DNA from: an uncultured Gemmatimonadaceae bacterium
GTDB taxonomy: Bacteria > Gemmatimonadota > Gemmatimonadetes > Gemmatimonadales > Gemmatimonadaceae
Assembly: GCA_963781585.1 (NCBI GenBank)
Contig: CAWAGQ010000004.1
Span: 160,001 to 224,000 of the forward strand
DNA: 64,000 nucleotides
Reading direction: 5' to 3'
Made by a program: the position numbers and the translations under genes. The notes under the pieces were generated by a model. The model was given only the letters and a program-made list of their open reading frames with translations. It made no database searches and was not told the DNA's origin. The first letter of the stretch is position 1. Each line of letters begins with the position of its first letter. This document shows positions 24,052-63,168 of this stretch, one piece after another.

Positions 24052-24888
24052 ATGGACACCGTCGTCGCGGGCGGCATTCTGTACGTCGTTGCCACGCCGA
24101 TCGGCAACCTCGGCGACGTCACGTTGCGTGCCCTCGACGTGCTGCGCGGCGTCCACCTGATACTGGCAGAGGATACCCGAACAACGCGGATTCTGCTCGA
24201 TCACTTCGGCATCCGAGCGTCCATGCGGTCCCTGCACGAGCACAACGAGGCGCGTTCGATTGGCGGCGTGCTGCAGCGCCTGGCACGAGACGAGGCGGTC
24301 GCGCTGGTGTCGGACGCGGGCACGCCGCTCATTTCCGATCCCGGTGGCCGCCTGGTGCGTGCCGTCTGGGAGGCTGGACGGCGCGTCGTCCCCGTCCCTG
24401 GGGCGAGCGCGGTCACCGCGGCCCTCTCCGCGGCAGGCGTGGACACGAACCGATTCACCTTCCTCGGCTTCCTCCCCCGTTCCGGAAAGGAGCGCGCGGC
24501 GGCGCTGCACGCGCTTAGCACAATGCCGCACACGAGCGTACTTTACGAGTCTCCCGGGAGGCTCGCGCGTACGCTCCGGGACCTTGCCGGAGTCGGGTGC
24601 GGCGACCGGGAAGCGGTAGTCGCGCGCGAGGTGACCAAACGATTCGAAGACTTCCGGCGCGGAACGGTGTCCTCGCTCGCAGCGTACTACGCTTCGTCGC
24701 CCCCACGCGGCGAAGTCGTGATCGTGTGCGCGGGACGTCCCGAGGAAGTGGCCGACGAAACGATGCTCCGTGAACGTGTGCGTGCCATGCAGGAGAACGG
24801 CGCCAGCGCGCGCGAGATCATGAGCGCGCTGGCGCGTGAGCATGGCGTCGCCCGGAATCTGGCGTACCGGCTGGCTCACGGCGCATGA
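24052..24888 (+). CDS. rsmI: 16S rRNA (cytidine1402-2'-O)-methyltransferase
   Basis: LYVVATPIGNLGD, AEDTR, VSDAGTPLISDPG, YESP.R, REVTKRFE. Confidence 0.96.
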   Translation: MDTVVAGGILYVVATPIGNLGDVTLRALDVLRGVHLILAEDTRTTRILLDHFGIRASMRSLHEHNEARSIGGVLQRLARDEAVALVSDAGTPLISDPGGRLVRAVWEAGRRVVPVPGASAVTAALSAAGVDTNRFTFLGFLPRSGKERAAALHALSTMPHTSVLYESPGRLARTLRDLAGVGCGDREAVVAREVTKRFEDFRRGTVSSLAAYYASSPPRGEVVIVCAGRPEEVADETMLRERVRAMQENGASAREIMSALAREHGVARNLAYRLAHGA

Positions 24889-25622
24889 AAGCTCCCGGGA
24901 TCGCCGCGGCGCTGCTGGCGTTCGTGTTCGCGCCGCCGGGCACCACCCTCCCGGTGCGCACAACTCGCGCGCCGGCGGCCTCCCTGGAACATGGGCACGC
25001 CGGTCTCGCGTCGGCTCCGCGGATGACGATCGCGCGGCTTCAGTACGGCGGCGGCGGAGACTGGTACGCCAATCCCTCCAGCCTCCCCAATCTGCTGAAG
25101 GCGATCAACGAGCGAACGACGCTGCGGGTGGAGAATACGGAAGCGCGCGTCACGCTCATGGACGAACGCCTGTGGGACTTTCCATTCCTGCACGTCACCG
25201 GACACGGAACCATCCGGTTCTCCGACGAAGAGGTCGTGCGCCTGCGGGACTACCTGCTGCGCGGCGGTTTCCTGCACGTCGACGACAATTATGGATTGGA
25301 CGAGAGCTTCCGGAAGGAGATCGGTCGCGTGTTCCCCAACCGGCCGCTCGTGGACGTGCCGCTGACCCATCCCATCTATCACATCGTCTACGATTTCCCC
25401 AAGGGTATTCCGAAGATCCACGAGCACGATGGAGCGCCGGCACGCGGCTTCGGCATCTTCATTGGAGATCGGCTCGCCGTGTACTACAGCTACTCGAGCG
25501 ATCTGGGGAATGGATGGGAGGACCCCGGCACGTACAACGATCCTCCCGCGCTGCATGAAGCGGCGCTGCGCATGGGAGTCAACCTGTTCGTCTACGCCGT
25601 GACCAGCCGGCCCACATCATGA
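24885..25622 (+). CDS. DUF4159 domain secreted protein
   Basis: IARLQYGGGGDWY, PFLHVTGHG, LRDYLLRGGFLHVDDNYG, DLGNGWED, ALRMGVN. Confidence 0.85.
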   Translation: MKAPGIAAALLAFVFAPPGTTLPVRTTRAPAASLEHGHAGLASAPRMTIARLQYGGGGDWYANPSSLPNLLKAINERTTLRVENTEARVTLMDERLWDFPFLHVTGHGTIRFSDEEVVRLRDYLLRGGFLHVDDNYGLDESFRKEIGRVFPNRPLVDVPLTHPIYHIVYDFPKGIPKIHEHDGAPARGFGIFIGDRLAVYYSYSSDLGNGWEDPGTYNDPPALHEAALRMGVNLFVYAVTSRPTS

Positions 25623-28600
25623 GTCTTCGCGATCTCCTCGAACGAGAGCGACGCCGGGTCACCTGGCTGTCGGCCGCCGCCGTCGCCACGGTACTGACCG
25701 GCACAGTAGCGGTCCTGGTCGCACTCTCGGCGCTCCTGCTGGCCGGAGCGCGATGGCTGGTGCTTCCGCGGCCGGTGCCGTACTTGCTGTGGCTGGTGAT
25801 TGGCCTGGTGTTGGCAACAGGTGTCCGATTCGCGCGACGTCGTCTGGCGCGCGATGGGTCCGTCGGCGGGGTCGCACGCGCGGTAGAGCACGAGCGCACG
25901 CTGCGCGACGGCGCCCTGCGCGGCGCGCTTGAAGTCGCCGACTCGGGCGCCCTGGGACGTCTCAACGCCGAACGGATGGCTGACCGGCTGTCGTCGCTGA
26001 GCGGCGGCGCGTTGGCACCCCGGATGCGCCAACGGATGCGCCGGCGGGTCATGGCGGGAAGCGCGGCGGCGGTTGCAGGCGCCGTAATGCTCGTGGCCGG
26101 CGCGACGACGGCCACGGATGGCTGGGCAGCGCTGGTCCATCCACTCCGCGCCTGGCGGGGAACGCTCCTCGATGGAGTTCGACTGGACCGGGTGCCGCGG
26201 GCAGTGCTGCGGGGAGAACGCGTGTCGTTCGAAGTGCGTGCGCCCGGACGTCGCGAGGTGTCGGTCGCGTATCGCATCACGGGCGCGTCGTGGCGCGAGT
26301 CGCACTTCCCGGTGCGCGACGGCAGTGCCACGGTGCGACTCGATCCGGTGGATGCCGACGTGGCGCTGTTTGCCACCGACGGCCGCGCCGTGAGCGATAC
26401 CGCCGTGGTGCGTGTCGTGGAACGGCCGTTCGTTGGCGACGTGACCATCCGCGCGCAGTTCCCGGCGTATCTCGACCGGCGTGAAGAGACCATTCCCCTC
26501 GGCGAGCCCGCACGGGTGCCTCAGGGCACCGTGCTGTCGTTCGACGGCCAATCATCCACCGAACTGCGCGACGTGCGACTCGTAAACGGCCGCGACACGG
26601 TTGCGATGCGGGCCGAGACCCGGCACTTCTCCGGTCGCATGTCGGCTGCGGCGAGCGGCAGGTACGAATGGCATGCCGTCGGCGCGGGTGGTCCGATTGC
26701 CGACGTACCGCCGCCGCTCGATCTCGAAGTGCTTCCCGATTCGGCTCCACGCGTGGAGATCCTCGCTCCGTCGGGAGACACGACCGTGATGGCCGGCGAT
26801 ACGGTCACGGTATCTGTCCTGGCAACCGACGACCACGGGATCCACTCGATCGATTTGCGGTCGTGGATCGTCACGGCGCGAGGCGCCGTGCGACCGTGGT
26901 CCGGCCGTTCGGTGGATGTGGCGAATCAGCCCCAATGGGCGGGGGAGACTGCCCTCATTACGTCGGCGCTGACACCCGGCGACGCCATGCACGTGGTGGT
27001 GTCGGCTTTCGACGGCTCGCCGTGGCATCTCAAGGGAGAAAGCCGCGAATTGGTGTTGCGCCTCCCAACACTGAGCGAACAGCGGGAGGCGGCGCGGGCA
27101 GCTGGTGACTCGACAGTGGAGCGCGCGGCCGCCACGGCAGCAGCCGAGAAGCAACTCCAGCAGCGCACCAGCGACGCGTCGCGCCGCCGCGATCGCGAGA
27201 CCAGCAGCGCAACCAACGCGCGCGGGCAGAGCGCGATGAGTTATCAGGCTTCGGAGGAGGCCAAGGCGTACGCCAAGGAGCAGCGCGATCTGACGAATCG
27301 CGTCCAGCAGCTCCAGCGTGCCGCCCAGCAGCTCGAGCAGCAGCTTCGGCAGGCGGGGGCGCTCGACAGCGGTTTGCAGGCCCGGCTGCGGGAAGCGCAG
27401 CAGCTCTTGAACGAAGCCCTGACGCCGGAGTTGGCGGAGCAGCTCAAGAAGCTGGAGCAGGCATCGCAGAAGCTGTCGGCCGAAGACGCGCGGAAGGCAT
27501 TGGCGGACCTGGCGCAGCAGCAGCAGCGGCTCCGGGAACAACTCGAGAAGAGCGTGGAGATGCTGAAACGCGCGGCGCTGGAAGGCAGCATGGCGACGCT
27601 CAAGGATGATGCCAACGACCTGGCAAAGCGCGAACGCCAGCTCGCCGATTCGTTGGCGCGCGCCGACGCGCAGCAGCGGCAGGGAGACGCCCAGAGCGAG
27701 GCGAAGAAGCTCGCCGATCGCTCGCGGGATCTGGCGGACGAAGTGAAGTCACTCCAGCAGCGGCTCCAGCAACAGAATGCCCAGAGCGGCGCCGAGCGGG
27801 CCGCGGAGGCACAGCGCCGGGCGCAGGAATCGGCCCAGGCGCTAGACCGCGCGGCGCAGCAGTCAGCCACCCAGCGGCCCAACGACGTGCCGCAGCGTCC
27901 GCAGCAGAACGGCCAGCAGCAGAGCGGCCAGCAGCAGAATGGCCAGCAGCAGAATGGCCAGCAGCAGAGCGGCCAACAGCAGAGTGGTCAGCAGCAGAGC
28001 GGCAAGCAGCAGAGCGGCCAACAGCAGAGCGGCCAACAGCAGAGCGGCCAGCAGCAGAGCGGCCAGCAGCAGAGCGGCCAACAGCAGAGCGGCCAACAGC
28101 AGAGCGGCCAACAGCAGGGTGCCCAGTCGGGCAATAGCTCGCAGGCCGGGCAGCGCCCCGGACAGCAGAGCGGGGCGGACAAGGGCGGCGACAAGCAGAG
28201 CAGCGAAGGGGCCGCTCGTCAGGCAGCGCAGGCGATGGAGGAGGCTGCCAACCAGCTCGCCAAGGCGCGCGAGCAGCAGGTGAGCGAGTGGAAGCAGGAG
28301 CTGACCACGGAGCTCGACCGTTCGATTCAGGAAATGATCGAGCTGGCGCGCACGCAGGATGCGCTGGAACAGAAGGCGCGCCAAGGCGCGACGCCGCAGG
28401 ATCTGCGCGCCGAGCAGGGGACCCTGCAGCAGGGTGTGGACAAGTCGGCGCAGCGGCTCCAGGACGCGGCGCAGAAATCATCGCTCCTGTCCCAACGTTC
28501 GCTGCGGATGGTGTCGGACGCGCGAAAATCGGTCGAGGAAGCCACACGCCAGACGCAGGCGTCGTCCGACGGCTCGCAGGTCGCGAGCGCCATGCGGGAC

Positions 28601-29212
28601 GCTTCGGAGTCGCTCAATCAGGCGGCGGCGTCGCTCGTGCGCGACCGCGAGCGAGCGCAGAACGCCAATTCCGCGTCGGGATTTGCCGAGATGCTGCAGC
28701 AGCTGCAGCAGATGGCGCAGCAGCAATCGTCGCTGAACTCCTCCGTTCAGGACCTGCTGCCGCGGACCGGGGCGCAACTCGACGCCAAGGGGCAGCAGAT
28801 GTCGCGCCAGCTGGCGCGCGACCAGCGGGAGGTGGCCGCGAAGCTCGACGACGTGGCCGATCAGGATGCGACAGGGCGCGCCGAGGAACTGGCGAAGGAG
28901 GCGCGCCAGATCGCGCAGGCGCTGGAAGCGGCCCAGGTGGACCCGAATGTGGTGGCCCGACAGGAGCGTCTGTTCCGCAAGATGCTCGATGCGGGCCGGC
29001 TGCTCGAGGACGACCAGCGAGAGGACACCGGAAAGCGGGAAGCCAAGGCGTGGACCGGCACGGAAGTTTTCACGCCGCAGACCAGCACGGCGGCGGGTCG
29101 CTCGGCATCGCGATTCCAGCCGCCCACCTGGAACGACCTGCGCGGACTGACTCCGGAGGAGCGCCGGTTGGTCCTGGAGTATTTCAAGAAGATCAATGGC
29201 GAGCGGCCGTAG
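25619..29212 (+). CDS. Large membrane-anchored coiled-coil protein (DUF4175-like) with a Gln-rich repeat
   Basis: Three N-terminal hydrophobic segments, Ig-like region (PDSAPRVEILAP, ATDDHGI), long Q/E/A coiled coil, C-terminal LVLEYFKKI. Confidence 0.8.
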   Translation: MSLRDLLERERRRVTWLSAAAVATVLTGTVAVLVALSALLLAGARWLVLPRPVPYLLWLVIGLVLATGVRFARRRLARDGSVGGVARAVEHERTLRDGALRGALEVADSGALGRLNAERMADRLSSLSGGALAPRMRQRMRRRVMAGSAAAVAGAVMLVAGATTATDGWAALVHPLRAWRGTLLDGVRLDRVPRAVLRGERVSFEVRAPGRREVSVAYRITGASWRESHFPVRDGSATVRLDPVDADVALFATDGRAVSDTAVVRVVERPFVGDVTIRAQFPAYLDRREETIPLGEPARVPQGTVLSFDGQSSTELRDVRLVNGRDTVAMRAETRHFSGRMSAAASGRYEWHAVGAGGPIADVPPPLDLEVLPDSAPRVEILAPSGDTTVMAGDTVTVSVLATDDHGIHSIDLRSWIVTARGAVRPWSGRSVDVANQPQWAGETALITSALTPGDAMHVVVSAFDGSPWHLKGESRELVLRLPTLSEQREAARAAGDSTVERAAATAAAEKQLQQRTSDASRRRDRETSSATNARGQSAMSYQASEEAKAYAKEQRDLTNRVQQLQRAAQQLEQQLRQAGALDSGLQARLREAQQLLNEALTPELAEQLKKLEQASQKLSAEDARKALADLAQQQQRLREQLEKSVEMLKRAALEGSMATLKDDANDLAKRERQLADSLARADAQQRQGDAQSEAKKLADRSRDLADEVKSLQQRLQQQNAQSGAERAAEAQRRAQESAQALDRAAQQSATQRPNDVPQRPQQNGQQQSGQQQNGQQQNGQQQSGQQQSGQQQSGKQQSGQQQSGQQQSGQQQSGQQQSGQQQSGQQQSGQQQGAQSGNSSQAGQRPGQQSGADKGGDKQSSEGAARQAAQAMEEAANQLAKAREQQVSEWKQELTTELDRSIQEMIELARTQDALEQKARQGATPQDLRAEQGTLQQGVDKSAQRLQDAAQKSSLLSQRSLRMVSDARKSVEEATRQTQASSDGSQVASAMRDASESLNQAAASLVRDRERAQNANSASGFAEMLQQLQQMAQQQSSLNSSVQDLLPRTGAQLDAKGQQMSRQLARDQREVAAKLDDVADQDATGRAEELAKEARQIAQALEAAQVDPNVVARQERLFRKMLDAGRLLEDDQREDTGKREAKAWTGTEVFTPQTSTAAGRSASRFQPPTWNDLRGLTPEERRLVLEYFKKINGERP
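27911..28120 (+). repeat. In-frame tandem repeat, 14 x 15 bp (consensus GGCCARCAGCAGAGC), encoding (GQQQS/N)n
   Basis: Units counted directly in the DNA and the translation. Confidence 0.95.
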
Positions 29213-30896
29213 ATGCACCATCGTGCTGTCGGTGCTGCTCTGGCTGGTGCCGTGCGCCGTCACCGCTCAGGCTGGATCGCTTCCGCAGGCGCTGAACCTG
29301 GAGCAGGCGGGAAAGTGCGGCGACGCGTTCCCGCTTTATCGGCAGGCACTCGGCGAGGGTGATGTCGCCGGGGCCCTGCTCGGCCTCGAACGATGTGCGT
29401 CGGAGCTCGGTCGCGGCGACACCCTGTTGGTGGTGCTGGACAGCGTACTGCGGCTTCGCCCGCGCGATCCGGTGGCGCGCGACGCGCAGCTGCGCACGCT
29501 GACCTCGGCGGAGCGGTTCGACGCGGCGTCGGCGGCGTTCTCGCAATGGACGGCCGCCGCGCCCGGGGATGCCGCGCCTTATCGCCAGTACGCGCACCTG
29601 CTGCTCCAGGCCGGCCGGCCGGCCGCCGCCGATACCGTCCTCACCGCCGCGACCTTGGCGTTAGGCGGCACGCGTGAAATCGCCGCCGAGCTGGCGGAGA
29701 TGCGTGCCACACTCGGGATGTGGGATGCGTCGGCGCGAAGCTGGCGTGAAGCCATGGTGTCGCTGCCGTACCTCGAACAGGCGGCGGTGTACGTCCTGAG
29801 CCAGGCGCCGCCCGCGGCGCGCGACTCGGTGCGCACGGTGCTGCGAGGCCCCCCGGTCGAGATCCACGTGCGTCGAATACTCGCGGGACTCGAGTTGCGC
29901 TGGCGCTCCGCCAGCGAGGCCTGGCGGGCCCTGAGCGTGCTCCCCGCGAGCGATTCCGCGGTCGCCGCGTGGCTCGAGTTCGCCGCCGATGCCTCGCAGC
30001 AGGACGCGTGGCTCGCGGCGCGCGACGCGTACGTGGCGGTGCTCGATCACGGCGCGCCGGGCGACAAACTCGTGGTCAACGCCGCGACGGCCGCACTCCG
30101 GGGCGGTGAGCCCGCCTCCGCGGTGGAGATTCTGGACGCACACCCGACCACCGCCGACTCGTCGGTCGCGACGCGGATGGTGCTGCTGCGCGTGCGTGCG
30201 TTGAGTGACATGGGACGCCCCACCATGGCCGACAGTCTCCTTGGTGCAAACGCCTCCGTGCTCGATTCCGCATCGCGCGACGAAGCGATTCGAGCGGTCG
30301 CATGGGGCTGGATCCGCAGCGGTGACGTGGAGCAGGCCAGGACCACTCTGGCACGCTCCGCCTCGAGTGCCGGTCCCGATGACGAACTGGCCTCGTGGTT
30401 TGCGCTTTACGAGGGCGATCTCAAGACGGCGCGCTCGGGCCTCCGCCATTTCGACGAGACCTCGCGGGACGCGGTGCTCGCCATGGCCCTGTTGACGCGA
30501 ACCCGCGCCGATACGTCCGTGAACGCGGGCCAGGCCTTTCTGGCGCTGGCCCGCGGCGACACGGCGCGAGCCGCCGCCGCATTCGAGGCGACAGCCGCGA
30601 CGCTCACCGATGCCGCCCCATTCATGCTGGGGGTCGCGGCACGGCTGTATCGGAGCACGCCCGATTCACTGCGGAGTCCCGGCATCTGGAAGATGCTCAT
30701 CGAGCAGTACGCGCAGGCACCGGAGGCCGCCGAAGCCGACCTCGAGTGGGCCCGCACGCTCCGCCGCCACGGCGACAATGCTGACGCGGTCACGCGCCTC
30801 GAGCATCTTATACTGACGTATCCGCAAAGCGCCCTCGTCCCGCAGGCCCGGCGCGAGCTGGAGCTCGCGAAGGGCGCCATTCCTCCGCTTCGATGA
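29196..30896 (+). CDS. Secreted TPR-repeat protein
   Basis: Signal-like N-terminus, Ala/Leu-rich helical repeats, C-terminal LIEQY...PEA...LEHLILTYPQSALVPQAR (BamD/CpoB-like TPR end). Start uncertain. Confidence 0.8.
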   Translation: MASGRRCTIVLSVLLWLVPCAVTAQAGSLPQALNLEQAGKCGDAFPLYRQALGEGDVAGALLGLERCASELGRGDTLLVVLDSVLRLRPRDPVARDAQLRTLTSAERFDAASAAFSQWTAAAPGDAAPYRQYAHLLLQAGRPAAADTVLTAATLALGGTREIAAELAEMRATLGMWDASARSWREAMVSLPYLEQAAVYVLSQAPPAARDSVRTVLRGPPVEIHVRRILAGLELRWRSASEAWRALSVLPASDSAVAAWLEFAADASQQDAWLAARDAYVAVLDHGAPGDKLVVNAATAALRGGEPASAVEILDAHPTTADSSVATRMVLLRVRALSDMGRPTMADSLLGANASVLDSASRDEAIRAVAWGWIRSGDVEQARTTLARSASSAGPDDELASWFALYEGDLKTARSGLRHFDETSRDAVLAMALLTRTRADTSVNAGQAFLALARGDTARAAAAFEATAATLTDAAPFMLGVAARLYRSTPDSLRSPGIWKMLIEQYAQAPEAAEADLEWARTLRRHGDNADAVTRLEHLILTYPQSALVPQARRELELAKGAIPPLR

Positions 30897-32215
30897 TTCC
30901 TTCATCTGGACGCCAGCTTTCGCCGGTCGCGACACCCCGGCCCCGTCCGCGACGCTCGTCAATCGCCGCGCTCGCGCTCATGCTGGCGGTCGGCCTGCCG
31001 GTGGCCGGGCACGCACAACACTTGCTCGTCCCGATGGACGACTCGCAGACCAACGATCTCAAGGCGTACGGACTGACGTACAATGCCCTGCGCGACGGGA
31101 TCAAGGCGGAGTGGTTTCTGAACTACCGCGGCGGATCGTTTCTCCTTCCCGATCTGCCGGAGCTGCGTCGGCGCGCGTCGCTCGACGGGATCGTCTTCGA
31201 GGCGGTAAACGATGCCGCGCTCGCGTCGATCCGCGCCGAGATCGCCGAAAACAACATGGACGCGATCTCGCTCGAGCGAGCGCCCAGGATCGCCATCTAC
31301 ACGCCGCCGAAGGCGCCGCCGTGGGACGATGCGGTCACCCTCGCGCTCAAGTACGCCGGAATCGAATACACGGCCGTCTGGGACGACGAGGTCATGAACG
31401 GCGACCTGGTGAAGTACGACTGGCTGCATCTGCACCACGAGGACTTCACCGGGCAGTTGAACAAGTTGTATCTGACGTATCGCGATGTGCCGTGGTTCGT
31501 CGAGCAGCGCGACTGGAACCTGGCTGCCGCCAAGCGGCTGGGGTTCGCGAACATTCCGGCGCTGAAGAAGGCGGTGGCCGAGAAGATCCGGCAGTATGTG
31601 GAACGCGGCGGGTTCCTGTTCGCCATGTGCGGCGCCACCGAGACGCTGGCGCTCGCCATCGCGGCCGACAAGACCGACATCGCCGCCGCGTACGCCGATG
31701 GCACACCGATGGACGAGAACGCCGACGCCATGCTCGACTGGGACCGCTCGTTCGCGTTCCAGAATGTGCATCTGGAGCAGTCGGCCTTCGTGAACTCGAT
31801 GAGCGACATCGACGGCCATCAGGTGAACGTACCTGGCCGCCGCCAGGCGCTTGGCCAATTCACGCTGTTTTCGTTCTCGGCCAAATTCGACCCCGTGCCG
31901 AGCATGCTGGTGCAGGATCATCGCACGGTGATCCCCGACTTCTACGGCGTAACAACCAGCTTCACCAAGGCGACTCTCAAGCCCGGCGTTACGGTTCTCG
32001 CGAGCGAAGAGGGCGCGCCGTGGGTCAAGTACATCCACGGCGACTACGGGAAGGGCTCGTGGACATTCCTTGGCGGGCATGATCCCGAATCGCCGCAGCA
32101 CAACATCGGTGCCGCGCCCACCGATCTGTCGCTCTTCCCGACCTCGCCCGGCTATCGCCTGATTCTGAACAACGTGCTCTTCCCGGCGGCGAAGAAGAAA
32201 CCGCTGAAGACCTAG
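30893..32215 (+). CDS. Secreted class-I glutamine-amidotransferase-like protein (family often labelled 'asparagine synthetase B')
   Basis: Signal peptide, LLVPMD..Q..LKAYG, PWDDAVTLAL.YA, YDWLHLHHEDFTGQ, GGFLFAMC, GGHDPE, SPGYRLILNNVLFPAA. Confidence 0.75.
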   Translation: MIPSSGRQLSPVATPRPRPRRSSIAALALMLAVGLPVAGHAQHLLVPMDDSQTNDLKAYGLTYNALRDGIKAEWFLNYRGGSFLLPDLPELRRRASLDGIVFEAVNDAALASIRAEIAENNMDAISLERAPRIAIYTPPKAPPWDDAVTLALKYAGIEYTAVWDDEVMNGDLVKYDWLHLHHEDFTGQLNKLYLTYRDVPWFVEQRDWNLAAAKRLGFANIPALKKAVAEKIRQYVERGGFLFAMCGATETLALAIAADKTDIAAAYADGTPMDENADAMLDWDRSFAFQNVHLEQSAFVNSMSDIDGHQVNVPGRRQALGQFTLFSFSAKFDPVPSMLVQDHRTVIPDFYGVTTSFTKATLKPGVTVLASEEGAPWVKYIHGDYGKGSWTFLGGHDPESPQHNIGAAPTDLSLFPTSPGYRLILNNVLFPAAKKKPLKT

Positions 32216-49034: not shown

Positions 49035-50417
49035 TCAACCGTCGCCCAGGGTGTCGCGCACCACCCGCTCGAAGGCCGCATCTTCCGATTCCGCTATCGA
49101 GCGCAGGTCGAGCAGGAAGCGGCCGTCGGCGATGCGACCGATGACAGGGATGCGCGCCGCACGCAGGCGCGCCTCCAGCAACGATGGATCTCCCGGTGGC
49201 GAGACCGCGCACGATGGCAATCGGGCCGTGGGGAAGGCGCCCCCGCCCACGCTTCCCTCGGAGCTGACGATCTCACACTCTACGCCGCGCTCTCGCAGGG
49301 TGGCGACCAGGCGCTCCGCCCGTTCGCGCACGCGATTTACGGGCGCCGTGATCATGGCCAGGGCCGGAATCTCGCGTACCGCGCGCTCGGGATCGCGGTA
49401 GAGCGCCAGCGTGGATTCCAGCGCCGCCAGCGTCAGCTTGTCGACGCGCAGCGCGCGCGCCAGCGGATTGCGGCGACACCGCTCGACGATCTCATGTGCC
49501 CCGACGATGATTCCGGCCTGTGGTCCGCCGAGGAGTTTGTCGCCGCTCATGCAGACCAGAGTGGCGCCATCGGACACTGCCTGATGGGCCGTGGGTTCAC
49601 CGGTGAGCCCGAATCGCTCGAGCGATACCAGCAATCCGCTTCCCAGATCGAACAGCAGCGGCACTCCGGCTTCGTCGGCGATCGGGCGCAGATCCCGCAA
49701 CGACGCTTCGGCGACGAAGCCGCGCACCTCGAAGTTGCTGCGGTGCACCTTCACGATCGCGCCGGTGTCCGCGCCGAGCGCGCGCCGGTAGTCGTCGGCG
49801 TGCGTGCGATTGGTCGTCCCGACTTCGCGCAGGATGGCCCCGCTTCGCGCCATGATGTCGGGCACGCGGAAGCTTCCACCGATCTCGATGAGCTCCCCGC
49901 GCGAGACGATCGCCTCACGGCCGTTCGCCACGGTGTTGAGCGCCAGCACCAGCGCCGCGGCGCCATTGTTGACGACCATGGCGTCTTCAGCGCCCGTCAG
50001 TTCGCACAACAGCGCGGCACAGTGCACGTAGCGGGAGCCTCGTTCCCCACGCGACAGATCGTACTCGAGGTTGTTGGCGCCGCCCGCGGTCCGGGCGATG
50101 GCCTCCAGCGCCGCGGGTGCCAACGGCGCCCGACCGAGGTTGGTGTGCAGCACCACTCCGGTCGCGTTGAACACCGGCCGCAACGACGGGCGCTGGCGAA
50201 GCGCCACTTCAGCGCTGATGGCGGCCACCCAGTCGCGCTCGCTCATCCCGGTGGTCGTGGTGGCAACGCGCGGATCTCCCGTGGTGCGAACGCGATCGAC
50301 CACGGCGCGCACCGCGTCGACGACGAGGGAGCGAGGCGCCTGCGCGAGAAGCGTCCGCACGCCCGACAGCTCGAGCAGGGCCGCCACCGCGGGTAGCGTG
50401 CTCCGCCGGTCACCCAC
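49035..50417 (-). CDS. selA: L-seryl-tRNA(Sec) selenium transferase
   Basis: NATGVVLHTNLGRA, NLEYDL..GERGSR, SRGELIEIGGSFR, EVGTTNRT, KVHRSNF, SGDKLLGGPQ (PLP Lys), RALRVDK. Confidence 0.95.
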   Translation of the reverse strand: MGDRRSTLPAVAALLELSGVRTLLAQAPRSLVVDAVRAVVDRVRTTGDPRVATTTTGMSERDWVAAISAEVALRQRPSLRPVFNATGVVLHTNLGRAPLAPAALEAIARTAGGANNLEYDLSRGERGSRYVHCAALLCELTGAEDAMVVNNGAAALVLALNTVANGREAIVSRGELIEIGGSFRVPDIMARSGAILREVGTTNRTHADDYRRALGADTGAIVKVHRSNFEVRGFVAEASLRDLRPIADEAGVPLLFDLGSGLLVSLERFGLTGEPTAHQAVSDGATLVCMSGDKLLGGPQAGIIVGAHEIVERCRRNPLARALRVDKLTLAALESTLALYRDPERAVREIPALAMITAPVNRVRERAERLVATLRERGVECEIVSSEGSVGGGAFPTARLPSCAVSPPGDPSLLEARLRAARIPVIGRIADGRFLLDLRSIAESEDAAFERVVRDTLGDG

Positions 50418-51678
50418 GCGGCCGCCCGGTGAGGAGCCGGCGCACCGAAGAGGTGTCCTTCGGTGGTGGGGGTCGCGGGGTGTTGAACACCCGATCGGTG
50501 GAGCGCAAGGCGCCGGTAATGCTGCGGAGGTCTGCCGCGTGCAGCCGGAGGCTGCTGCCTGGCGGAAGGGCACGCTGGAGCTGGATCACCAGCTCGGTAC
50601 TGGGGATCGGTGCGACCGGTCTGGGGGCAACGCGATGTGTTGTGTCGGCCGACGATACTTGCGGCGGCGCGGTGGCAACGCCGGGGCGTCGGCCGGTCGG
50701 ACGTGACGGCGGAGCGGCACCGGCGCGGGCGCTGTCGGCCGCACGGATCGAATCCCGCCGGGCGGCGGCCTGCACCGAATCCTGAACGTGCTTTGCGACG
50801 ATGGAGTCGGCGATGTGTCGCTCCACTTCGCGTGCGGTGAGGACGGTGTCGATGGCGAGCTGCGTGCTGTCGCTGGTCTTGAGGGTGAACAGCGAGGACG
50901 TGAGCGTGAATGCCGTGTCCAGTGCGCGATCGAGCGTCACGCGCAAGGTCAGGCTGTCCTTGACCGTCACGCTGGCGATACCGGGCCCCAGTGAGTCACG
51001 CAGGATGGCGAGCATTTCGCGTCGCACCGAGTCCTGCAGCGGGATCGTCACGGAATCGAACAGTTCGCGCGGGTCGAGAAGCCGATTATGATTCTGGTCG
51101 ACGATCGCGCGGACGAGGTAACTGCCAGCCGGCATGTTGTCGATCCGGAACGCGCCAAGGGAATCACTGGTCGCCGAGTATCGCGTGCTGTCGGGCAGGA
51201 CGAGCGCTTCCACATAGGCCTGCGGCGCCGGTCGCGCGGCGAGCCAATCGAATACGCGCCCTGCGATCACGCCGTGGGCGATCTCCGCGCCGGTGGAGAA
51301 GACGATTACACGGCCGACCGAATCGACGTTGTTGGAGAGGTCGCTGACACCCGGTCGCATGCGAACGGTGTAGGTCGTGTTCCGCCGGAATCCGCCGTCG
51401 ATGGTGACGACGACGCGCGACCGGTGCCAGGACACCCTCGGCGTCCCGTCGCTGGGCGAGACGAGAAAAAGGTCGGCGAGGGACGTCGCGCCACGGGGGC
51501 GTTCGCTGACGACTTCGTTGAAGTCGAAGCTCACGCCTCCGGTGCGGACGTCCCGCGAGTTGCTGTCGGGGCGCACCCGGACCACCTTCGGCGGCGTGAC
51601 ATCGGTCGGTCCACCGGGCGGGACGCCGGGTTGGTAGCAGGCGGCGGTCACGGCCGCGATCGGAATCAGCCACCGCAC
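50410..51678 (-). CDS. Ig-like (Big_5) domain lipoprotein
   Basis: Lipobox TAAC, PPGGPTDVTPP, F.FNE, NTTYTV....V.DL..N, FSTG, D.N.N..LD. Confidence 0.8.
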   Translation of the reverse strand: MRWLIPIAAVTAACYQPGVPPGGPTDVTPPKVVRVRPDSNSRDVRTGGVSFDFNEVVSERPRGATSLADLFLVSPSDGTPRVSWHRSRVVVTIDGGFRRNTTYTVRMRPGVSDLSNNVDSVGRVIVFSTGAEIAHGVIAGRVFDWLAARPAPQAYVEALVLPDSTRYSATSDSLGAFRIDNMPAGSYLVRAIVDQNHNRLLDPRELFDSVTIPLQDSVRREMLAILRDSLGPGIASVTVKDSLTLRVTLDRALDTAFTLTSSLFTLKTSDSTQLAIDTVLTAREVERHIADSIVAKHVQDSVQAAARRDSIRAADSARAGAAPPSRPTGRRPGVATAPPQVSSADTTHRVAPRPVAPIPSTELVIQLQRALPPGSSLRLHAADLRSITGALRSTDRVFNTPRPPPPKDTSSVRRLLTGRPRG

Positions 51679-57445: not shown

Positions 57446-57608
57446 TTTCTGCGCCATGGTCGCGGCCACGTCAGGCAGAGCTGGTGAATCCCGTCCTGCT
57501 GGTGGAAGGTCGAGGCGATCGCGGTCTTCCCGCCTCGCCAGGCCACGGTACACCTTTGACGCCCGCGCGCTGTCCAAGGGCCGTGACCCGTTCCCGATCC
57601 CATCACAC

Positions 57609-59555
57609 ATGACCGCCTTGCACCGGCGCCGCCCGCTCGCCCTGGCCGGCGCGCTCATCCTGGTGGGCGGCTGCATCCAGCCGCTGCGCCTGGCCAGGGA
57701 CGATTCGCCCGTTGTTCTGGCGCACCAGCTGCTGAACGCGCCGGATCCCAGCGCGCACGGCCAATACCGCGTTCGCACCCTGTACTACGGCAGCGGCACG
57801 GACAAACGTCGCCCCGAATACCGCGACTCGGTGACGCTGAAAACACACAGCGTGGACGGGAGCAAGCTCGCGGAAGCGCCGAGTCCGGCCGCCGGCAAGG
57901 ACCGCGCGAAGTACTGGGGGTTCGACTTCAAGAAAATGCCGGTGAACGGGAGAGTCTGGTATCCGGATGGGAACGGGCCGTTCCCGCTGGTGCTGATCGT
58001 GCACGGCAACCACAACATGAAGGACTACTCCGACCCGGGTTACGGGTACCTGGGCGAGCTGCTGGCGTCGCGCGGTTTCATCCTGGCGTCGGTGGACGAG
58101 AATTTTCTCAACGGCAATATCCGCGGAGAGAACGACGCACGCGGGTGGATGCTGCTCCAGCACCTCAAGGCATGGCGGGGGTTCAACGATTCCGCGACGT
58201 CTCCGCTCGCGGGGAAGATCGACATGCACCGGATCGCGCTCATGGGCCATTCGCGGGGCGGGGAAGCGATCGCCGTGGCCGGCGCGTTCAACCGGCTGAC
58301 GCACTACCCCGATGACGCGACGATCAAGTTCGATTTCGGATTCGACATCCAGTCGCTGGTGGCGATCGCGCCGGTCGACGGACAGTACCGGCCTTCCGAC
58401 AAGCCGACCCCGCTTGCCGACTACAACTACTTCCTGATCCACGGCTCGCACGACGGCGATGTGTCCACCTTCAGCGGCCTGACCCAGTACGAGCGCATCC
58501 GGTTCACCGACGGGCAGCCGCGCTTCAAGGCGGCGATCTGGGTGTACCGCGCCAACCACGGGCAGTGGAACACCGTGTGGGGAAACAAGGACAACGGACC
58601 ACGCAGCGGCCGGGTGCTCGATCTCCGCGGACTCCTGCCGCCGGAGGATCAGCGTCGCTTTGCCGAGGTGTACATCACGGCCTTTCTCGAGGCGACCCTG
58701 AACGGACGCCACGAGTACCTGCCCATGTTCCGCGACCACCGGGTGGTGGGGCATTGGCTGCCGAAGACGATGTACGTGACCCGGTTTCAGGAGAGCGGGT
58801 TTCACGCCGCGGCCGACTACGAAGAAGACATCGACGTCACCACCGGAAGCGCCCCCGGCATCGTACTGTCCGGGGACTCGCTTTCGACCTGGAAGGAGGC
58901 GGCGGTGCCGTTCCGGTCGCGGAACAGCAACATGGCGCACGACGCGGTGTGGCTCGGCTGGAACAACCACATTGCCGGCGATGACACCACCAGGATGGGG
59001 CGCCCCGCCTCATACGCGCTCACGTTAGGCGATTCGATCCGGAGTGCGTGGCAGGTCGGGACGCGCAGTGAGCTCGTGTTCTCGCTCCGGCCTACCGATG
59101 CCCGACCGGGTCCCCGGTCACCGGCTCGCGACTCGACGAAGAAGGACTCCGTCAAGGCCAAACCGGCCCCGAAGCGCGCTGCACCGCGCAAGCCAGCCGC
59201 CGCCGATTCCACGCCGTTCGATCTCAGCGTGGAAGTGGCCGACGCCGCCGGGCACGCGGCCCGCCTCCCGCTGAGCCGGTACGGCGCCGTGCGCCGTCCC
59301 CTCGACGCGTACGTGTACCTGCGAAGCGGTCGGGACAAGCAGCGATTCGCCAGTCTCGCCGAAATGGTCCTCCAGACCTACGTCATTCCACTGGCCGATT
59401 TCCACGAGGCCGATTCCGCACTCGACCTGAGCTCGGTGAAGACGGTCCGGTTCGTCTTCGATCGCACGCCGGTTGGAACCGTGGTCCTCGACAACGTGGG
59501 CTTCTCGAACATGAGTCCGGATTTCCTGCTCGCCGCAGACGGACGGCCCCAATGA
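57609..59555 (+). CDS. Secreted/lipoprotein alpha/beta hydrolase
   Basis: Lipobox-like VGGC, PFPLVLIVHGNH, GY.YLGELLASRG, nucleophile GHSRGG, HGSHDGDV, ANHGQWN. Confidence 0.85.
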   Translation: MTALHRRRPLALAGALILVGGCIQPLRLARDDSPVVLAHQLLNAPDPSAHGQYRVRTLYYGSGTDKRRPEYRDSVTLKTHSVDGSKLAEAPSPAAGKDRAKYWGFDFKKMPVNGRVWYPDGNGPFPLVLIVHGNHNMKDYSDPGYGYLGELLASRGFILASVDENFLNGNIRGENDARGWMLLQHLKAWRGFNDSATSPLAGKIDMHRIALMGHSRGGEAIAVAGAFNRLTHYPDDATIKFDFGFDIQSLVAIAPVDGQYRPSDKPTPLADYNYFLIHGSHDGDVSTFSGLTQYERIRFTDGQPRFKAAIWVYRANHGQWNTVWGNKDNGPRSGRVLDLRGLLPPEDQRRFAEVYITAFLEATLNGRHEYLPMFRDHRVVGHWLPKTMYVTRFQESGFHAAADYEEDIDVTTGSAPGIVLSGDSLSTWKEAAVPFRSRNSNMAHDAVWLGWNNHIAGDDTTRMGRPASYALTLGDSIRSAWQVGTRSELVFSLRPTDARPGPRSPARDSTKKDSVKAKPAPKRAAPRKPAAADSTPFDLSVEVADAAGHAARLPLSRYGAVRRPLDAYVYLRSGRDKQRFASLAEMVLQTYVIPLADFHEADSALDLSSVKTVRFVFDRTPVGTVVLDNVGFSNMSPDFLLAADGRPQ

Positions 59556-60490
59556 GCCGCTTCGCGAGAGATGCGGTCCTCGCCGCCGGGCTGCTGGCCG
59601 TCTCCGCGGTAGCGGCGCGCGCCCAGCGCGACCGCTACGCGCCCATCGTGCTCCAGCTTCCAGCGTCGGCGCGCGCCACGGGTCTGGGCGGCGCGACCGT
59701 GGCCCTGCGGGATATCGAAAGCCTGTTCGCGAATCCCGCTCTGGCCGGCACCCTCACGGGGGTCGCGGTGTCGGGCGAACAGTTCCGGGCCAGCCGCCAG
59801 GGGACGATCGCCGCCAGCGTGTCGTTAGGCACCCTCGGGGTGTCGGTCGGCGCCCAGTTCTTCGACTTCGGGGTTTCGCAGGGTGCAGCCGACGGCTTCC
59901 CGACGGCGCGGCAGTGGCCCGCACCCAGTACCGTGATCGACGAGCGCGCGGCCGCGGCAGCCTCGAGTTTCTCCGGCGCCATCGCCCTCGCCGCGGCGTT
60001 CAAGGGCTACCGCTTCGGTCTTGCGGCGAAGTACATCGATGAGCGGCTCGGTGTGCGCCGCGCGGAAAGACCGGCGTTCGACCTCGGCATCGCTCGCGAT
60101 CGGGGGAGGGTGACAGTGGGCTTGAGCGTGCAGAACATCGGCCCCACCGTCGACTTCGCACCTCTGCGCAGTGCGCAGCTGCCGTTGCGCGCTACGCTGG
60201 GCATGGCGGCGTTCGGTCTCACCGAGGGCCCACTCGATCTCGGGCTTTCGGCGGCCGTCACGGTCCGACGTGACGGGTATGTCGCGCCCGCGGTGGGCAT
60301 GGAGTGGTCGTACTGGCCGCTCGAAGGGTACACCTTCGCGGTGCGCGCCGGCGTCCGCAGGCCGGAGCTGCGCGAACAACGGCCGCTGACGGCCGGCGCG
60401 TCATTCACGCTCGATCGGATCTCGGTGGACTACGCGTTCGAGCAGATGCGTCACGGCGCAGGACACCGGATCGGTCTGAGACTGCGCTAG
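59552..60490 (+). CDS. PorV/PorQ-like (FadL-type) outer-membrane barrel
   Basis: Signal peptide, LQLPASARATGLGGA, LFANPA, FDLG, VQNIG, LPLRATLG, DYAF, HRIGLRL. Confidence 0.75.
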   Translation: MSRFARDAVLAAGLLAVSAVAARAQRDRYAPIVLQLPASARATGLGGATVALRDIESLFANPALAGTLTGVAVSGEQFRASRQGTIAASVSLGTLGVSVGAQFFDFGVSQGAADGFPTARQWPAPSTVIDERAAAAASSFSGAIALAAAFKGYRFGLAAKYIDERLGVRRAERPAFDLGIARDRGRVTVGLSVQNIGPTVDFAPLRSAQLPLRATLGMAAFGLTEGPLDLGLSAAVTVRRDGYVAPAVGMEWSYWPLEGYTFAVRAGVRRPELREQRPLTAGASFTLDRISVDYAFEQMRHGAGHRIGLRLR

Positions 60491-60805
60491 CGGCGCGACT
60501 CTCCGGCGCCGGGTTGATTCGACCGGGCCGGCCGGCCCCCACCGAAGATGTGACCTTCTTGCAGTTCGGTTTTTGTCGCCGCGCTGCAACGAATCAGCGA
60601 TCTGTCCGCGCCTCGCGCGACAGCTGCGCACCGGACCAGGGGCGCCCCTCTCCCCGCATCGCATCTGACTGTCGCGCAACGACTTCAGCATCAATTCCGA
60701 CAACAGGTCTGGAGATTGCGTTATTCCCCGCACAACTCGGGCGGTGGAGGGGTCGCCGGTGCGCCGGCGACCGCGGGTACGGGGTCACCTCGGACTCTCA
60801 CACTC

Positions 60806-61381
60806 ATGAAAACAAGGAAACTCTGGCGTTCACTGCGGGCCGTGCTGGCGATCGTCGGCATTGCCGGCTGCGCATCGGATCCGACGTCGCCTGCTCCTGT
60901 TTCCGGGGCTTCCCCGAATCTCGTGGGGGGACTGCTGGGAAGCCTGACGACTGTCAACGCACTCACGCGCATCACGCCGCTCAACAAGGACGTCTCCGTC
61001 TCGGCGGTGATCGGGAAGGCAGGCGGGACCATCCGGATCCCCGAAGCGGGCTTCACTCTTACCGTACCGAAGAACGCGGTGAAGTCGCCGACCACGTTCA
61101 CCGTCACCGCGGTGAAGGGAAAGCTGGTTGCGTACGAATTCGAGCCGCACGGAACGCAGTTCTCGCACAAGCCGGTTGCGGAGCAGGACCTCCGCGTCAC
61201 GAACTGGAACGGACGCCTGCTGCCGCTGCTCAAGGCGGCGTACTTTGCGGACCGGAGCCAGCTCGACCTGAAAAACCTCACGGCTGAGGTCTCGGAGATC
61301 ATCTCCGGGCTCCTCCAGCCGCTCACCGGGAAGTTCCGGTGGGACATTCCGCACTATTCAGGATACATCGTCTGCTGGTAG
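60806..61381 (+). CDS. Lipoprotein with ZU5-like domain ending in HYSGYIVCW
   Basis: Lipobox IAGC; IGKAGGTI.IPEAGFTLTVPKNAV; YEFEPHG.QF..PV; terminal IPHYSGY. Confidence 0.8.
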   Translation: MKTRKLWRSLRAVLAIVGIAGCASDPTSPAPVSGASPNLVGGLLGSLTTVNALTRITPLNKDVSVSAVIGKAGGTIRIPEAGFTLTVPKNAVKSPTTFTVTAVKGKLVAYEFEPHGTQFSHKPVAEQDLRVTNWNGRLLPLLKAAYFADRSQLDLKNLTAEVSEIISGLLQPLTGKFRWDIPHYSGYIVCW

Positions 61382-61485
61382 GTTGCCGGACAGTCTCGAA
61401 CCCCACGCCCCGCTAAGCAGTGGGCCGTGAGGGCGCAGGGTGGGGAAGCGCGATCATGGCGTTTCCCCACCCTTGTTTGCCTGGG

Positions 61486-63168
61486 ATGGAAACGGCTGAG
61501 CGGTCGCGCTCGTCGAGTTGGGAGGCTCGCGCCCCAGGCCAAATGCCCCGCCCATCCCATTCGAGCGTCAGAATCGACGATCCGTTCCCGAGCGCGCGCG
61601 GCGGCGACCCCGCGGCGGCGCTGGTGCGCGCCGCGCAGGCCGAGCGGGACGGCCAGCTCGCCGTCGCCCGCAACCTGTATGAGCAGTGCGTCTGGTCGCA
61701 CGCGCGCACGCTGTCGCCGGCGCAGATCGGCGCGTGCCTGATCGGCATTGCCCGCACCTATCATCTCGACGGTGACTCCGAGGCGGCGCTCGATGTGCTC
61801 GAGGCGGCGTTCGCGCTCGCATCGGCGCAGGGAGACGACGCGTCGCTCGGAGCCGCCCTCAATTGCCAGGCGGTGGTGCGTTGGCACCGCGGACAGCTCG
61901 ACGAGGCCGAGCGGCTCTATCTCGAGGCCCAGGACTGTGGCGCGCGAATCGGCGATCGCCGCCTGGTCGCCATGACGGCACAGAACCGCGGTATCATCGC
62001 GAACGTGCGTGGTGAGCTGTCGGTCGCCTTGAACCACTATCGCGAGGCCCTGGTGGCTTTCCGCGCCCTCGGCCTCACCCGCGAGGTGTGCAACGTCCTC
62101 GGCAATCTCGGGATGCTCCACACGGATCTGGAGCAATGGGACGATGCCGAGCGGGCCTTCGGCGAGGCGCGGGGGCTGGCGGAGTCGGCAGCCGACGCGC
62201 ACACCCGCGTGCTGATCGAAGTCAACATCGCCGAGCTGGCCATCGCGCGCGCCGAGTTCGATCGGGCCCGGGTCATCAGCGAGCAGGCGTTGCGCCTGGC
62301 GCACACGCTCGGCGACGCCAGCGCCGAGGCCGAGTTGCGGAAGCATCTGGGAGTGGTGTGCCGCGAGACGGGTCACTACGAAGACGCCGACCATCATTTC
62401 GCCATCGGCGAGTCGCTCGCCGAGCGCCGCCAGAACCTGCTGCTCCTGGCGGAACTGGCTCGCGAGCGGGCAGATCTGCATTCCCGCCTGGGGCGCTTCC
62501 GCGAGACGGTACGGTGTCTCAATCGCTCCCATCAGTTGTTCTCCGAGCTGCGCGCGCGGCGCGACATCGCCGACATCGATCGCCGTCACCTGCGCATCGA
62601 GAGCACGTTCCTCGACGTTGTGCGACAGTGGGGTGAGTCGATCGAGTCCAAGGATGCGTACACGCAGGGCCACTGTCTTCGTGTGGCCGATCTGTCCTGC
62701 GCGATCGCGCGTCGCGTTGGCGTGGACGACCGCCGGCTGTTCTGGTTTCGCGTGGGCGCGCTGCTCCACGATGTCGGGAAGATTGCCGTGCCGGCCGAGG
62801 TGCTGAACAAGCCCGGGCGTCTCACCAGCGAGGAATGGGCGCTGATGCGCTCACATCCCGAAGCCGGCGTGGAACTGCTGCGAGGCATCGACTTTCCGGA
62901 GGATGTCATCCCGATCGTGTTGTCGCACCACGAGCGCTGGGACGGGACCGGGTATCCCCAGGGGCTCGCCGGCGAGCAGATCCACCTGGCGGCGCGGATT
63001 CTCGGCCTGGCGGACGTCTACGATGCGCTCACCACGAATCGGAGCTACAAGCCGGGGATGACCCATGCCGACGCCATGCAGACCATGCGCGACGGGGCCG
63101 GCTCGCACTTCGACCCGGCGTTGTTCTCCGAATTCGAAGCGGTGATGATGACGCTCTCGCCGCGTTAG
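61486..63168 (+). CDS. TPR-repeat + HD-GYP cyclic-dinucleotide phosphodiesterase
   Basis: MalT/Rap-type TPR helices; KDAYTQGH, LLHDVGK, NKPGRLT, HHERWDGTGYP, ADVYDALT..RSYK, HFDP. Start uncertain (61456, 61486 or 61543). Confidence 0.92.
   Translation: METAERSRSSSWEARAPGQMPRPSHSSVRIDDPFPSARGGDPAAALVRAAQAERDGQLAVARNLYEQCVWSHARTLSPAQIGACLIGIARTYHLDGDSEAALDVLEAAFALASAQGDDASLGAALNCQAVVRWHRGQLDEAERLYLEAQDCGARIGDRRLVAMTAQNRGIIANVRGELSVALNHYREALVAFRALGLTREVCNVLGNLGMLHTDLEQWDDAERAFGEARGLAESAADAHTRVLIEVNIAELAIARAEFDRARVISEQALRLAHTLGDASAEAELRKHLGVVCRETGHYEDADHHFAIGESLAERRQNLLLLAELARERADLHSRLGRFRETVRCLNRSHQLFSELRARRDIADIDRRHLRIESTFLDVVRQWGESIESKDAYTQGHCLRVADLSCAIARRVGVDDRRLFWFRVGALLHDVGKIAVPAEVLNKPGRLTSEEWALMRSHPEAGVELLRGIDFPEDVIPIVLSHHERWDGTGYPQGLAGEQIHLAARILGLADVYDALTTNRSYKPGMTHADAMQTMRDGAGSHFDPALFSEFEAVMMTLSPR

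Follow-up and report, generated by a model that had tools for sequence, protein, structure and literature searches.

The window analysed here is a stretch of 64,000 nucleotides from an uncultured Gemmatimonadaceae bacterium (contig CAWAGQ010000004.1 of assembly GCA_963781585.1, forward strand), and its positions are counted from its first letter. Near its end lies a gene for a small lipoprotein, followed on the same strand by a gene for a protein that combines an array of tetratricopeptide repeats (TPRs) with an HD-GYP domain. The original prediction had proposed that this lipoprotein cleaves itself and that its freed tail, once imported, binds the TPR array of its neighbour and so controls turnover of cyclic di-GMP (c-di-GMP).

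The lipoprotein and the TPR-HD-GYP protein

The features of the lipoprotein gene are given below. MAIN stands for microbial GAIN-like autoproteolytic domains, an example of which is found in YfkN of Bacillus subtilis (Brogan and Rudner, bioRxiv 10.64898/2026.05.12.724683).

60806-61381, + strand: lipoprotein gene, translating to 191 amino acids, stop codon at 61379-61381
60806..60871, + strand: signal peptide and lipobox recognised from the sequence, MKTRKLWRSLRAVLAIVGIAGC, Cys22 at 60869-60871
60947..61378, + strand: ZU5/GAIN(MAIN)-like beta-sandwich, residues 48-191, from an AlphaFold2 model, Foldseek and Pfam
61352..61360, + strand: predicted autoproteolytic HX(S/T) site H183-Y184-S185, H183 at 61352-61354 and S185 at 61358-61360
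61358..61378, + strand: heptapeptide SGYIVCW, last beta-strand and candidate released peptide, from sequence and model

Translation of positions 60806-61381 agrees with what had originally been described for this protein, including both ZU5-like motifs (GGTIRIPEAGFTLTVPKNA and FEPHGTQFSHKPV) and a C-terminus that reads ...DIPHYSGYIVCW, with IPHYSGYIVCW as the final residues before the stop codon. At the N-terminus, basic residues and a short hydrophobic stretch lead into LAIVGIAGC with the lipobox IAGC. Its cysteine, Cys22, is invariant among 78 homologues, and a lipobox pattern matches 207 of 221 family proteins (a pooled set of homologues that includes the best 150 of 982 clusters, one 119-residue fragment having been left out). 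From this lipobox the protein is predicted to be exported and lipid-anchored; LolA is encoded within the same window. The family comprises 982 clusters at an E-value of 1e-3 or better and 623 at 1e-10 or better, its members are almost all 185-260 residues long, and wherever the taxon is known its hosts are Gemmatimonadota. A search for longer or fused homologues turned up none, which is weak evidence. Three proteins of 448-477 residues from Fibrella/Fibrivirga (Bacteroidota; loci L059, L061 and L062) match lipoprotein residues 27-130 only and have a different architecture, with the N-terminal half of ZU5 only, no HFS tail and an end that reads ...RFRTGGG.

Between the lipobox and the all-beta domain the model places a disordered linker of about 25 residues. 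The AlphaFold2 model, built from 78 sequences, reaches pLDDT values above 90 across residues 50-191, and a Foldseek search with it returned the ZU5 domains of ankyrin, UNC5B and ZO-1 as the best matches (E 9.4e-5 to 1.4e-2, probability 1.00), followed by the GAIN domains of CELSR1, BAI3 and CD97, which bears out the ZU5-like fold first suspected from the motifs. Pfam detects ZU5 (PF00791) at 23 bits against a cut-off of 21, in a match that covers residues 65-103 only (profile positions 1-39 of 97), and no second domain. A profile search of Protein Data Bank sequences gave weak ZU5 matches (UNC5B, E 0.014), and it is the fold search that carries the ZU5 assignment. Judged by its modelled fold and its motif, the domain is a member of the ZU5/GAIN/MAIN superfamily.

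In the model, a turn joins the last two strands (residues 176-180 and 186-190) and holds H183-Y184-S185, in the same place as the HX(S/T) site of GAIN and MAIN domains. All 78 homologues keep H183 and S185, position 184 being phenylalanine in more than 90% of them, and among the 221 family proteins the motif is HFS in 215, HYS in 2 and neither in 4; the H-aromatic-S motif singled out in the original prediction thus recurs in 217 of 221. The scissile bond of the window lipoprotein would be Y184/S185. In YfkN the cut falls between F and S of HFS, as located by Edman degradation, and is abolished by a serine-to-alanine substitution (10.64898/2026.05.12.724683). Since bacterial MAIN domains cut at this point, self-cleavage of the window lipoprotein appears likely. 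Beyond the serine the family follows the core S-G-Y-[LMIV]-[VIL]-[SA]-x, with endings that vary by clade (VAW, SWH, AVD/GVD/AID, IST/ISI, SCG/SMG and NVWA), and 94 of 217 family proteins end 7 or 8 residues from the serine.

The downstream gene has these features:

61420..63168, + strand: TPR-HD-GYP gene, up to 582 amino acids, from Pfam and 14 orthologues
61600..62619, + strand: TPR superhelix, 17 helices, repeat period 40 residues, model pLDDT 94
61861-61863, 61984-61986, 62104-62106 and 62224-62226, + strand: codons of the invariant asparagines of the Asn ladder
62620..63165, + strand: HD-GYP domain, predicted c-di-GMP phosphodiesterase, from the HD_5 match and motifs

Roughly the first 60 residues lack conservation, which leaves the start of this gene uncertain (GTG at 61420, ATG at 61456 or ATG at 61486). 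Pfam finds five TPR_12 stretches and HD_5 (E 1.3e-43), and the HDVGK and HHERWDGTGYP motifs (the latter of the HHExxDGxGYP type) are intact in the window protein and invariant in 14 orthologues, so that the domain is a predicted c-di-GMP phosphodiesterase. No 19-residue window of the protein exceeds a Kyte-Doolittle value of 1.11, a profile devoid of membrane segments, and for this reason the protein is presumably soluble and cytoplasmic. These results indicate the soluble TPR protein with an intact HD-GYP domain that had been expected here.

TPR-only proteins found in related clusters align throughout with the TPR domains of the HD-GYP proteins and are homologous to them. Across 19 TPR domains and TPR-only proteins, four asparagines about 40 residues apart are invariant (residues 148, 189, 229 and 269 of the TPR-HD-GYP protein). 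In LGN-type repeats, an Asn ladder grips the backbone of the peptide. Foldseek places LGN/Pins first among the matches to the TPR model (E 6e-11 to 1e-9), every entry being complexed with an extended peptide, followed by the quorum sensor NprR (E 7e-7, template-modelling (TM) score 0.66) and then by Rap-pheromone complexes (TM 0.66-0.72); further down come a reader of histone tails and kinesin light chain bound to a cargo peptide.

Recurring gene neighbourhoods and promoters

Relatives were collected in a single genome scan with the pattern YEF[EG]PHGxxF, which gave 64 loci, a sample biased towards the subfamily of the window; every locus is centred on the lipoprotein gene, with 6-kb flanks. 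Four were dropped, namely L059, L061 and L062 with their partial ZU5 match and L063 with a 661-residue protein, and 56 of the 60 kept extend at least 900 nucleotides beyond the last lipoprotein gene and were assessable. In 35 of these 56 a same-strand TPR-family gene starts no more than 600 nucleotides downstream of the lipoprotein gene, and 43 carry a TPR, HD-GYP or activator gene anywhere in the locus. Adjacency to TPR regulators is spread over several deep clades of the lipoprotein tree, and the linkage on which the original prediction depended is therefore conserved in relatives.

The genes recur in three main layouts. In the first, shared by the window and 14 loci, one to three lipoprotein genes precede a TPR-HD-GYP gene. 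The second consists of lipoprotein, TPR-only protein (about 326-359 residues), sigma-54 activator and TPR-HD-GYP protein (13 loci and one truncated), and the third of two lipoprotein-TPR pairs followed by activator and TPR-HD-GYP genes (L021, L023 and L024). Two further orders were seen: activator, lipoprotein, TPR and TPR-HD-GYP in L058, and TPR, five lipoprotein genes and TPR-HD-GYP in L064. TPR-HD-GYP genes are also carried by L001 and L007. Arrays of 2-5 lipoprotein genes stand ahead of one receptor gene, for example in L064 and L033, and in the multi-gene layouts the gap from lipoprotein to TPR gene is 8-30 nucleotides. The five tandem lipoprotein genes of L064 (3341-8089 of that locus) are 42-74% identical and have a tail of their own, S[VR]Y[AS]LC[VI]E; a TPR gene precedes the array, and a perfect TGGCAC-N5-TTGC lies about 330 nucleotides upstream of that TPR gene.

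The linkage survives both divergence of the lipoprotein (30-57% identity) and rearrangement into three layouts. Distances between lipoproteins correlate with those between their adjacent TPR proteins (Mantel r 0.76, a value reached in 0 of 2000 permutations); this correlation, together with the tree, shows co-inheritance, not binding. When the 469 proteins of the loci were clustered all against all, only four families were widely shared: the lipoprotein (52 loci), the TPR protein (45), the activator (14) and a binding protein (13). Chance adjacency of lipoprotein and TPR genes was rejected on the recurrent layouts, the count of 35 in 56 and this clustering, all within loci centred on the lipoprotein gene.

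Three loci also carry genes for giant fusion proteins (L036 165-4877, L026 2484-5480 and L032 678-5465), situated upstream, at a distance of 0.3-1 kb, from pairs of lipoproteins whose tails are SGYNVWA and SGYLVSMG/SCG. The giant protein of L036 has 1570 residues and contains TPR_12, HD-GYP, GGDEF, an AAA_16 (STAND) ATPase and more TPRs, and that of L026 contains GGDEF, AAA_16 and TPR. Such fusions put c-di-GMP synthesis and breakdown and a STAND switch in one protein.

The fourth shared family is SBP_bac_5, the family-5 binding proteins of OppA, DppA and NikA (E 1e-63). By tblastn its genes are present in 15 of the 60 loci: immediately behind TPR-HD-GYP in ten members of the clade with ILIST tails, at the edge of the locus in L026 and L032, and in L049, L050 and L052 within an operon of SBP_bac_5, a permease, a permease with OppC_N and TPR-HD-GYP that is divergent from the lipoprotein gene. 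L050 is a Gemmatimonas metagenome-assembled genome with a related cluster.

Upstream of the lipoprotein genes we found sigma-54-type promoters. Both strands of all loci (1.2 Mb) were scanned for TGGCAC-N5-TTGC with GG and GC fixed and a score of at least 9/10, and 26 of the 45 sites found fall within 77 segments of 390 nucleotides upstream of lipoprotein genes, as compared to 0.48 expected; the remaining 19 are mostly intragenic. The close relatives L001, L002, L004 and L005 have perfect sites. The window has one further feature at the corresponding place:

60705..60719, + strand: degenerate sigma-54-type -24/-12 element AGGTCT-N5-TTGC, 6 of 10, 101 nucleotides upstream of the lipoprotein ATG

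This element is missed when no more than 2 mismatches are allowed; it retains GG-N10-GC and TTGC, and MAFFT aligns it with the TGGCAC-N5-TTGC sites of L001-L005. In the ILIST clade an invariant TGGCCC-N5-TTGC lies 61-63 nucleotides before the lipoprotein ATG, and further upstream there is an invariant palindrome, TGTAAC-N5-GTTACA, of which each of nine loci has exactly one copy. Another inverted repeat, CGTAAGTCGTTG...CAACGACTTAC, is conserved between palindrome and -24 element (L041-L046, L054-L056 and L060) and could be a second activator site or the site of a bending protein. The same clade, and only that clade, keeps in 8-9 loci a set of genes upstream of the module (L054 1838-5549 and equivalents) that encode a lipoprotein with DsbD_N, a membrane thiol-disulfide transporter of the DsbD type that includes a thioredoxin domain, and a beta-propeller protein with PD40.

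The activators encoded in the clusters comprise just an AAA+ core and HTH_8 and lack a sensor domain, and in an NCBIfam comparison the cluster activator aligns to PspF from PspF residue 1. Eight of 19 have GAFTGA and the others GAFTDA, and the Walker A motif GETGTGKE is present in all eight aligned.

The rest of the window is otherwise housekeeping (ThrRS, ValRS, GltX, SMC, LolA and SelA). Between the lipoprotein and TPR-HD-GYP genes there is no intrinsic terminator and no sigma-70 promoter, which is uninformative. Upstream, positions 57456-60490 encode a 699-residue alpha/beta hydrolase with weak chlorophyllase/PETase-like matches and, directly after it, an outer-membrane protein of the PorV/PorQ family (NCBIfam E 1.9e-17, below cut-off). 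We considered these genes as part of the module and rejected them; the pair recurs in L001 and L003 only, and in L001 lies about 4.6 kb away. The hydrolase and PorV/PorQ-like genes may be a pair related to type IX secretion. Elsewhere in the window, positions 49035-50573 on the minus strand encode SelA, the selenocysteine synthase (Pfam E 4e-143), and selenocysteine use by the organism is therefore probable. Positions 24885-32215 on the plus strand hold an uncharacterised operon for a DUF4159 protein, a protein of 1197 residues that Pfam leaves unmatched, a TPR protein and one of 440 residues, also unmatched.

A possible circuit and its alternatives

We tentatively read the two genes as a minimal Gemmatimonadota signalling module, in which the self-processed tail of the lipoprotein is the imported ligand of cytoplasmic TPR receptors; we would put this reading a little short of an even chance. 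In such a circuit the lipoprotein would be exported and anchored by its lipid, as its lipobox implies. Its ZU5/GAIN-like domain would then undergo an N-to-O acyl shift at Y184/S185, after which SGYIVCW would remain in place non-covalently, a step suggested by the invariance of the motif and by the HFS cleavage demonstrated in bacterial MAIN domains. Unfolding or degradation of the domain, or the help of a binding protein, might free the last strand; here we go by supposition. The binding-protein and permease genes of relatives suggest that an ABC importer of the Opp/Dpp type could take the strand up, and in the cytoplasm it may settle into the Asn-ladder groove of the TPR domain, alter HD-GYP activity and hence change c-di-GMP. 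In the fuller modules, the TPR-only paralogue would control the sensor-less sigma-54 activator in trans, an interaction that we infer from gene order alone, and the activator would in turn drive transcription from the lipoprotein promoter, so that the circuit would induce itself. That lipoprotein-TPR pairs are duplicated and that multi-copy lipoprotein arrays precede one receptor favours a precursor role for the lipoprotein, without proving it.

Several observations weigh against this signalling circuit, and its weak link is the release of the strand. The cleavage products of MAIN domains stay non-covalently associated (10.64898/2026.05.12.724683), and the cut pieces of the FIIND domains of NLRP1 and CARD8 likewise remain together according to the accounts available. 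Because cleaved pieces stay bound in every characterised relative, an extra step would be required to free the strand. Were unfolding or degradation that step, the signal might tell of proteolysis in the periplasm or of the condition of the envelope, not of cell density; given the outer membrane, a within-cell signal of the state of the periplasm is at least as likely as a between-cell density signal.

The tail itself does not behave like a variable, pherotype-like peptide. Among the 78 homologues it ranks with the best-conserved segments of the lipoprotein, as a strand with a structural role would in any case, signal or no signal, and in 123 of 217 family proteins a hydrophilic extension makes the piece after the serine 9-42 residues long. 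Nor does it stand out in mutual information with columns of the adjacent TPR protein: tail columns 189, 191 and 190 rank 14, 16 and 19 of 127 and column 188 ranks 94 of 127, in a run on 34 non-redundant lipoprotein/TPR pairs where shared ancestry dominates the signal. Divergence of body versus tail in the tandem lipoprotein arrays cannot separate the readings, as fold and catalysis constrain the tail anyway.

Further points on the same side concern the gene complement. An adjacent TPR gene is absent from 21 of the 56 assessable loci, and 13 of the 56 have no regulator at all within their 6-kb flanks. The 64-kb window contains no sigma-54 activator or rpoN gene and no SBP_bac_5 homologue or Opp-type transporter or permease gene, and its degenerate sigma-54 site must be counted weak. 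In NCBIfam, the scores of the cluster binding protein against SapA, Opp4A, DppA, GsiB and NikA are all far below their cut-offs, and no substrate can be assigned to it from them. Moreover, TPR folds are alike in general.

Many of the same data can be turned around so that the lipoprotein becomes the regulated output, a self-processing envelope lipoprotein with a structural or adhesive role, and the TPR proteins sense other imported peptides or another ligand and, together with the sigma-54 activator and c-di-GMP, turn the lipoprotein on. The sigma-54 promoters directly upstream of lipoprotein genes and the position of the lipoprotein as first gene of the operon suit an output well, although the promoter data are equally compatible with autoinduced precursor genes. 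The strands that remain bound after cleavage in related domains (10.64898/2026.05.12.724683), the conservation of the tail in the manner of a structural element and the occurrence of some lipoprotein genes with no regulators nearby point in this direction too. Left unexplained, however, are the duplication of pairs as units and the runs of up to five lipoprotein genes before one receptor, and a protein made of a 145-residue domain and no other module, with 6-7 residues after the cut, has no obvious effector part. We consider such an output role unlikely on balance, and still the most serious competitor of the signalling circuit.

A simpler proposal is that the genes share an operon and a sigma-54 regulon with no communication between their products, cleavage serving only maturation or turnover of the lipoprotein. 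The predicted compartments do differ, periplasm for the one and cytoplasm for the other, and adjacency is missing from 21 of 56 loci; mere co-regulation nevertheless sits poorly with a linkage that survives 30-57% lipoprotein identity and three rearranged layouts, and with the finding that just four families, lipoprotein, TPR, activator and family-5 binding protein, are widely shared. We judge it distinctly improbable.

Enterococcal sex pheromones are cut from lipoprotein signal sequences, and in the present clusters too a lipoprotein precursor adjoins a TPR receptor, so the signal might be the signal peptide and not the tail; this is very improbable, for the h-region is variable, the HFS tail is the conserved feature and the invariant autoproteolytic motif would be left unexplained. 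It is no less far-fetched that a nucleophile other than water resolves the Y184/S185 ester and covalently joins the lipoprotein, by its new C-terminus, to an envelope component, the heptapeptide being a leaving group, a scheme for which only the N-to-O acyl shift chemistry of HX(S/T) domains (10.64898/2026.05.12.724683) and the very short leaving piece speak, for which no precedent was found for the ZU5/GAIN/MAIN family in the literature covered, and which does not account for the TPR and binding-protein linkage.

Comparison with known systems

No description of the lipoprotein/TPR pair or of the cluster was found in a literature search that extended to neither subscription journals nor the supplements of the MAIN preprint. 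Even if the peptide model fails, stand-alone lipoproteins of autoproteolytic type (at least 623 clusters) and their regulator neighbourhood are apparently undescribed. The module offers a function for the cleaved strand, a candidate class of HD-GYP ligand and a candidate trans-regulator of a sensor-less sigma-54 activator. If the signalling circuit is right, it would be the first signalling system with a cytoplasmic peptide receptor known from a diderm phylum, and the first case of a cleaved GAIN/ZU5 strand acting as a free, transported messenger.

The nearest relatives in terms of the precursor are the MAIN proteins, which like the window lipoprotein are exported and have a GAIN/ZU5 beta-sandwich with HX(S/T) in the turn before the last strand (10.64898/2026.05.12.724683). 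They average 158 kDa and are enriched in Bacillota, whereas the window lipoprotein is a stand-alone domain of 20 kDa. Their architecture of signal peptide, adhesion or enzyme domains, MAIN and C-terminal surface anchor is not found in it; instead, it has an N-terminal lipid anchor, no ectodomain and 6-7 residues after the scissile bond. Self-cleavage of bacterial GAIN-like domains is a very recent finding, and its authors state that no signalling role has so far been traced to the small C-terminal fragment; the text of the preprint contains none of the terms lipoprotein, TPR, Gemmatimon, ZU5 or HD-GYP (10.64898/2026.05.12.724683).

Zhang et al. (2012, PMC3482391) describe predicted ZU5 autopeptidase domains of polymorphic toxins and of large surface proteins. 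These are likewise bacterial and predicted to be self-cleaving, and Pfam ZU5 matches both groups. They stand, however, at the N-terminus of large RHS/SpvB toxins or of large surface enzymes, from which a big protein would be released, and a small lipoprotein or a link to a regulator is not described in the portions of that paper available.

In adhesion G-protein-coupled receptors (GPCRs), the Stachel strand stays tethered to the seven-transmembrane receptor and is exposed by force. The proposed module would resemble the GAIN/Stachel arrangement in that the signal is carried by the terminal beta-strand, the one behind an HX(S/T) cut (10.64898/2026.05.12.724683). It would differ in that its strand has a free C-terminus and no tether, and in that the candidate receptor lies in another compartment. 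A sigma-54 activator regulated in trans is known from PspF and PspA. The cluster activator is similarly made of AAA+ and HTH_8 only; its candidate partner in the module is the TPR-only protein, not PspA.

Peptide signalling through cytoplasmic TPR proteins is treated as a speciality of Bacillota in PMC10075063. We compared the module with Rap-Phr, NprR-NprX and PlcR-PapR of the RRNPP family (PMC10075063 and PMC10569065). Both have adjacent genes for an exported precursor, in the module a candidate one, and a cytoplasmic TPR protein, and both have duplicated cassettes; for the module, a short C-terminal active peptide and Opp-type import are proposed likenesses. In addition, the folds nearest to the TPR domain of the window protein include NprR and Rap (TM 0.66-0.72). 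The RRNPP precursor, however, is a propeptide of 40-60 residues cut by a secreted protease, whereas that of the module is a folded 191-residue lipoprotein that would cut itself. RRNPP outputs are helix-turn-helix domains or a Rap-type phosphatase or anti-activator, while those of the module are HD-GYP and a sigma-54 activator, alongside TPR-only proteins that lack an output domain. The RRNPP hosts are Bacillota, and that of the module is a diderm of the Gemmatimonadota. Because LGN is closer than the RRNPP receptors by E-value, common descent is not shown. The module is therefore RRNPP-like in its logic and is not a member of the RRNPP family, and we suggest, somewhat more guardedly than for the circuit as a whole, that it may have arrived at this logic with independent parts: a Stachel-like 7-8-mer, Opp-type import, an Asn-ladder TPR domain, and c-di-GMP and sigma-54 autoregulation.

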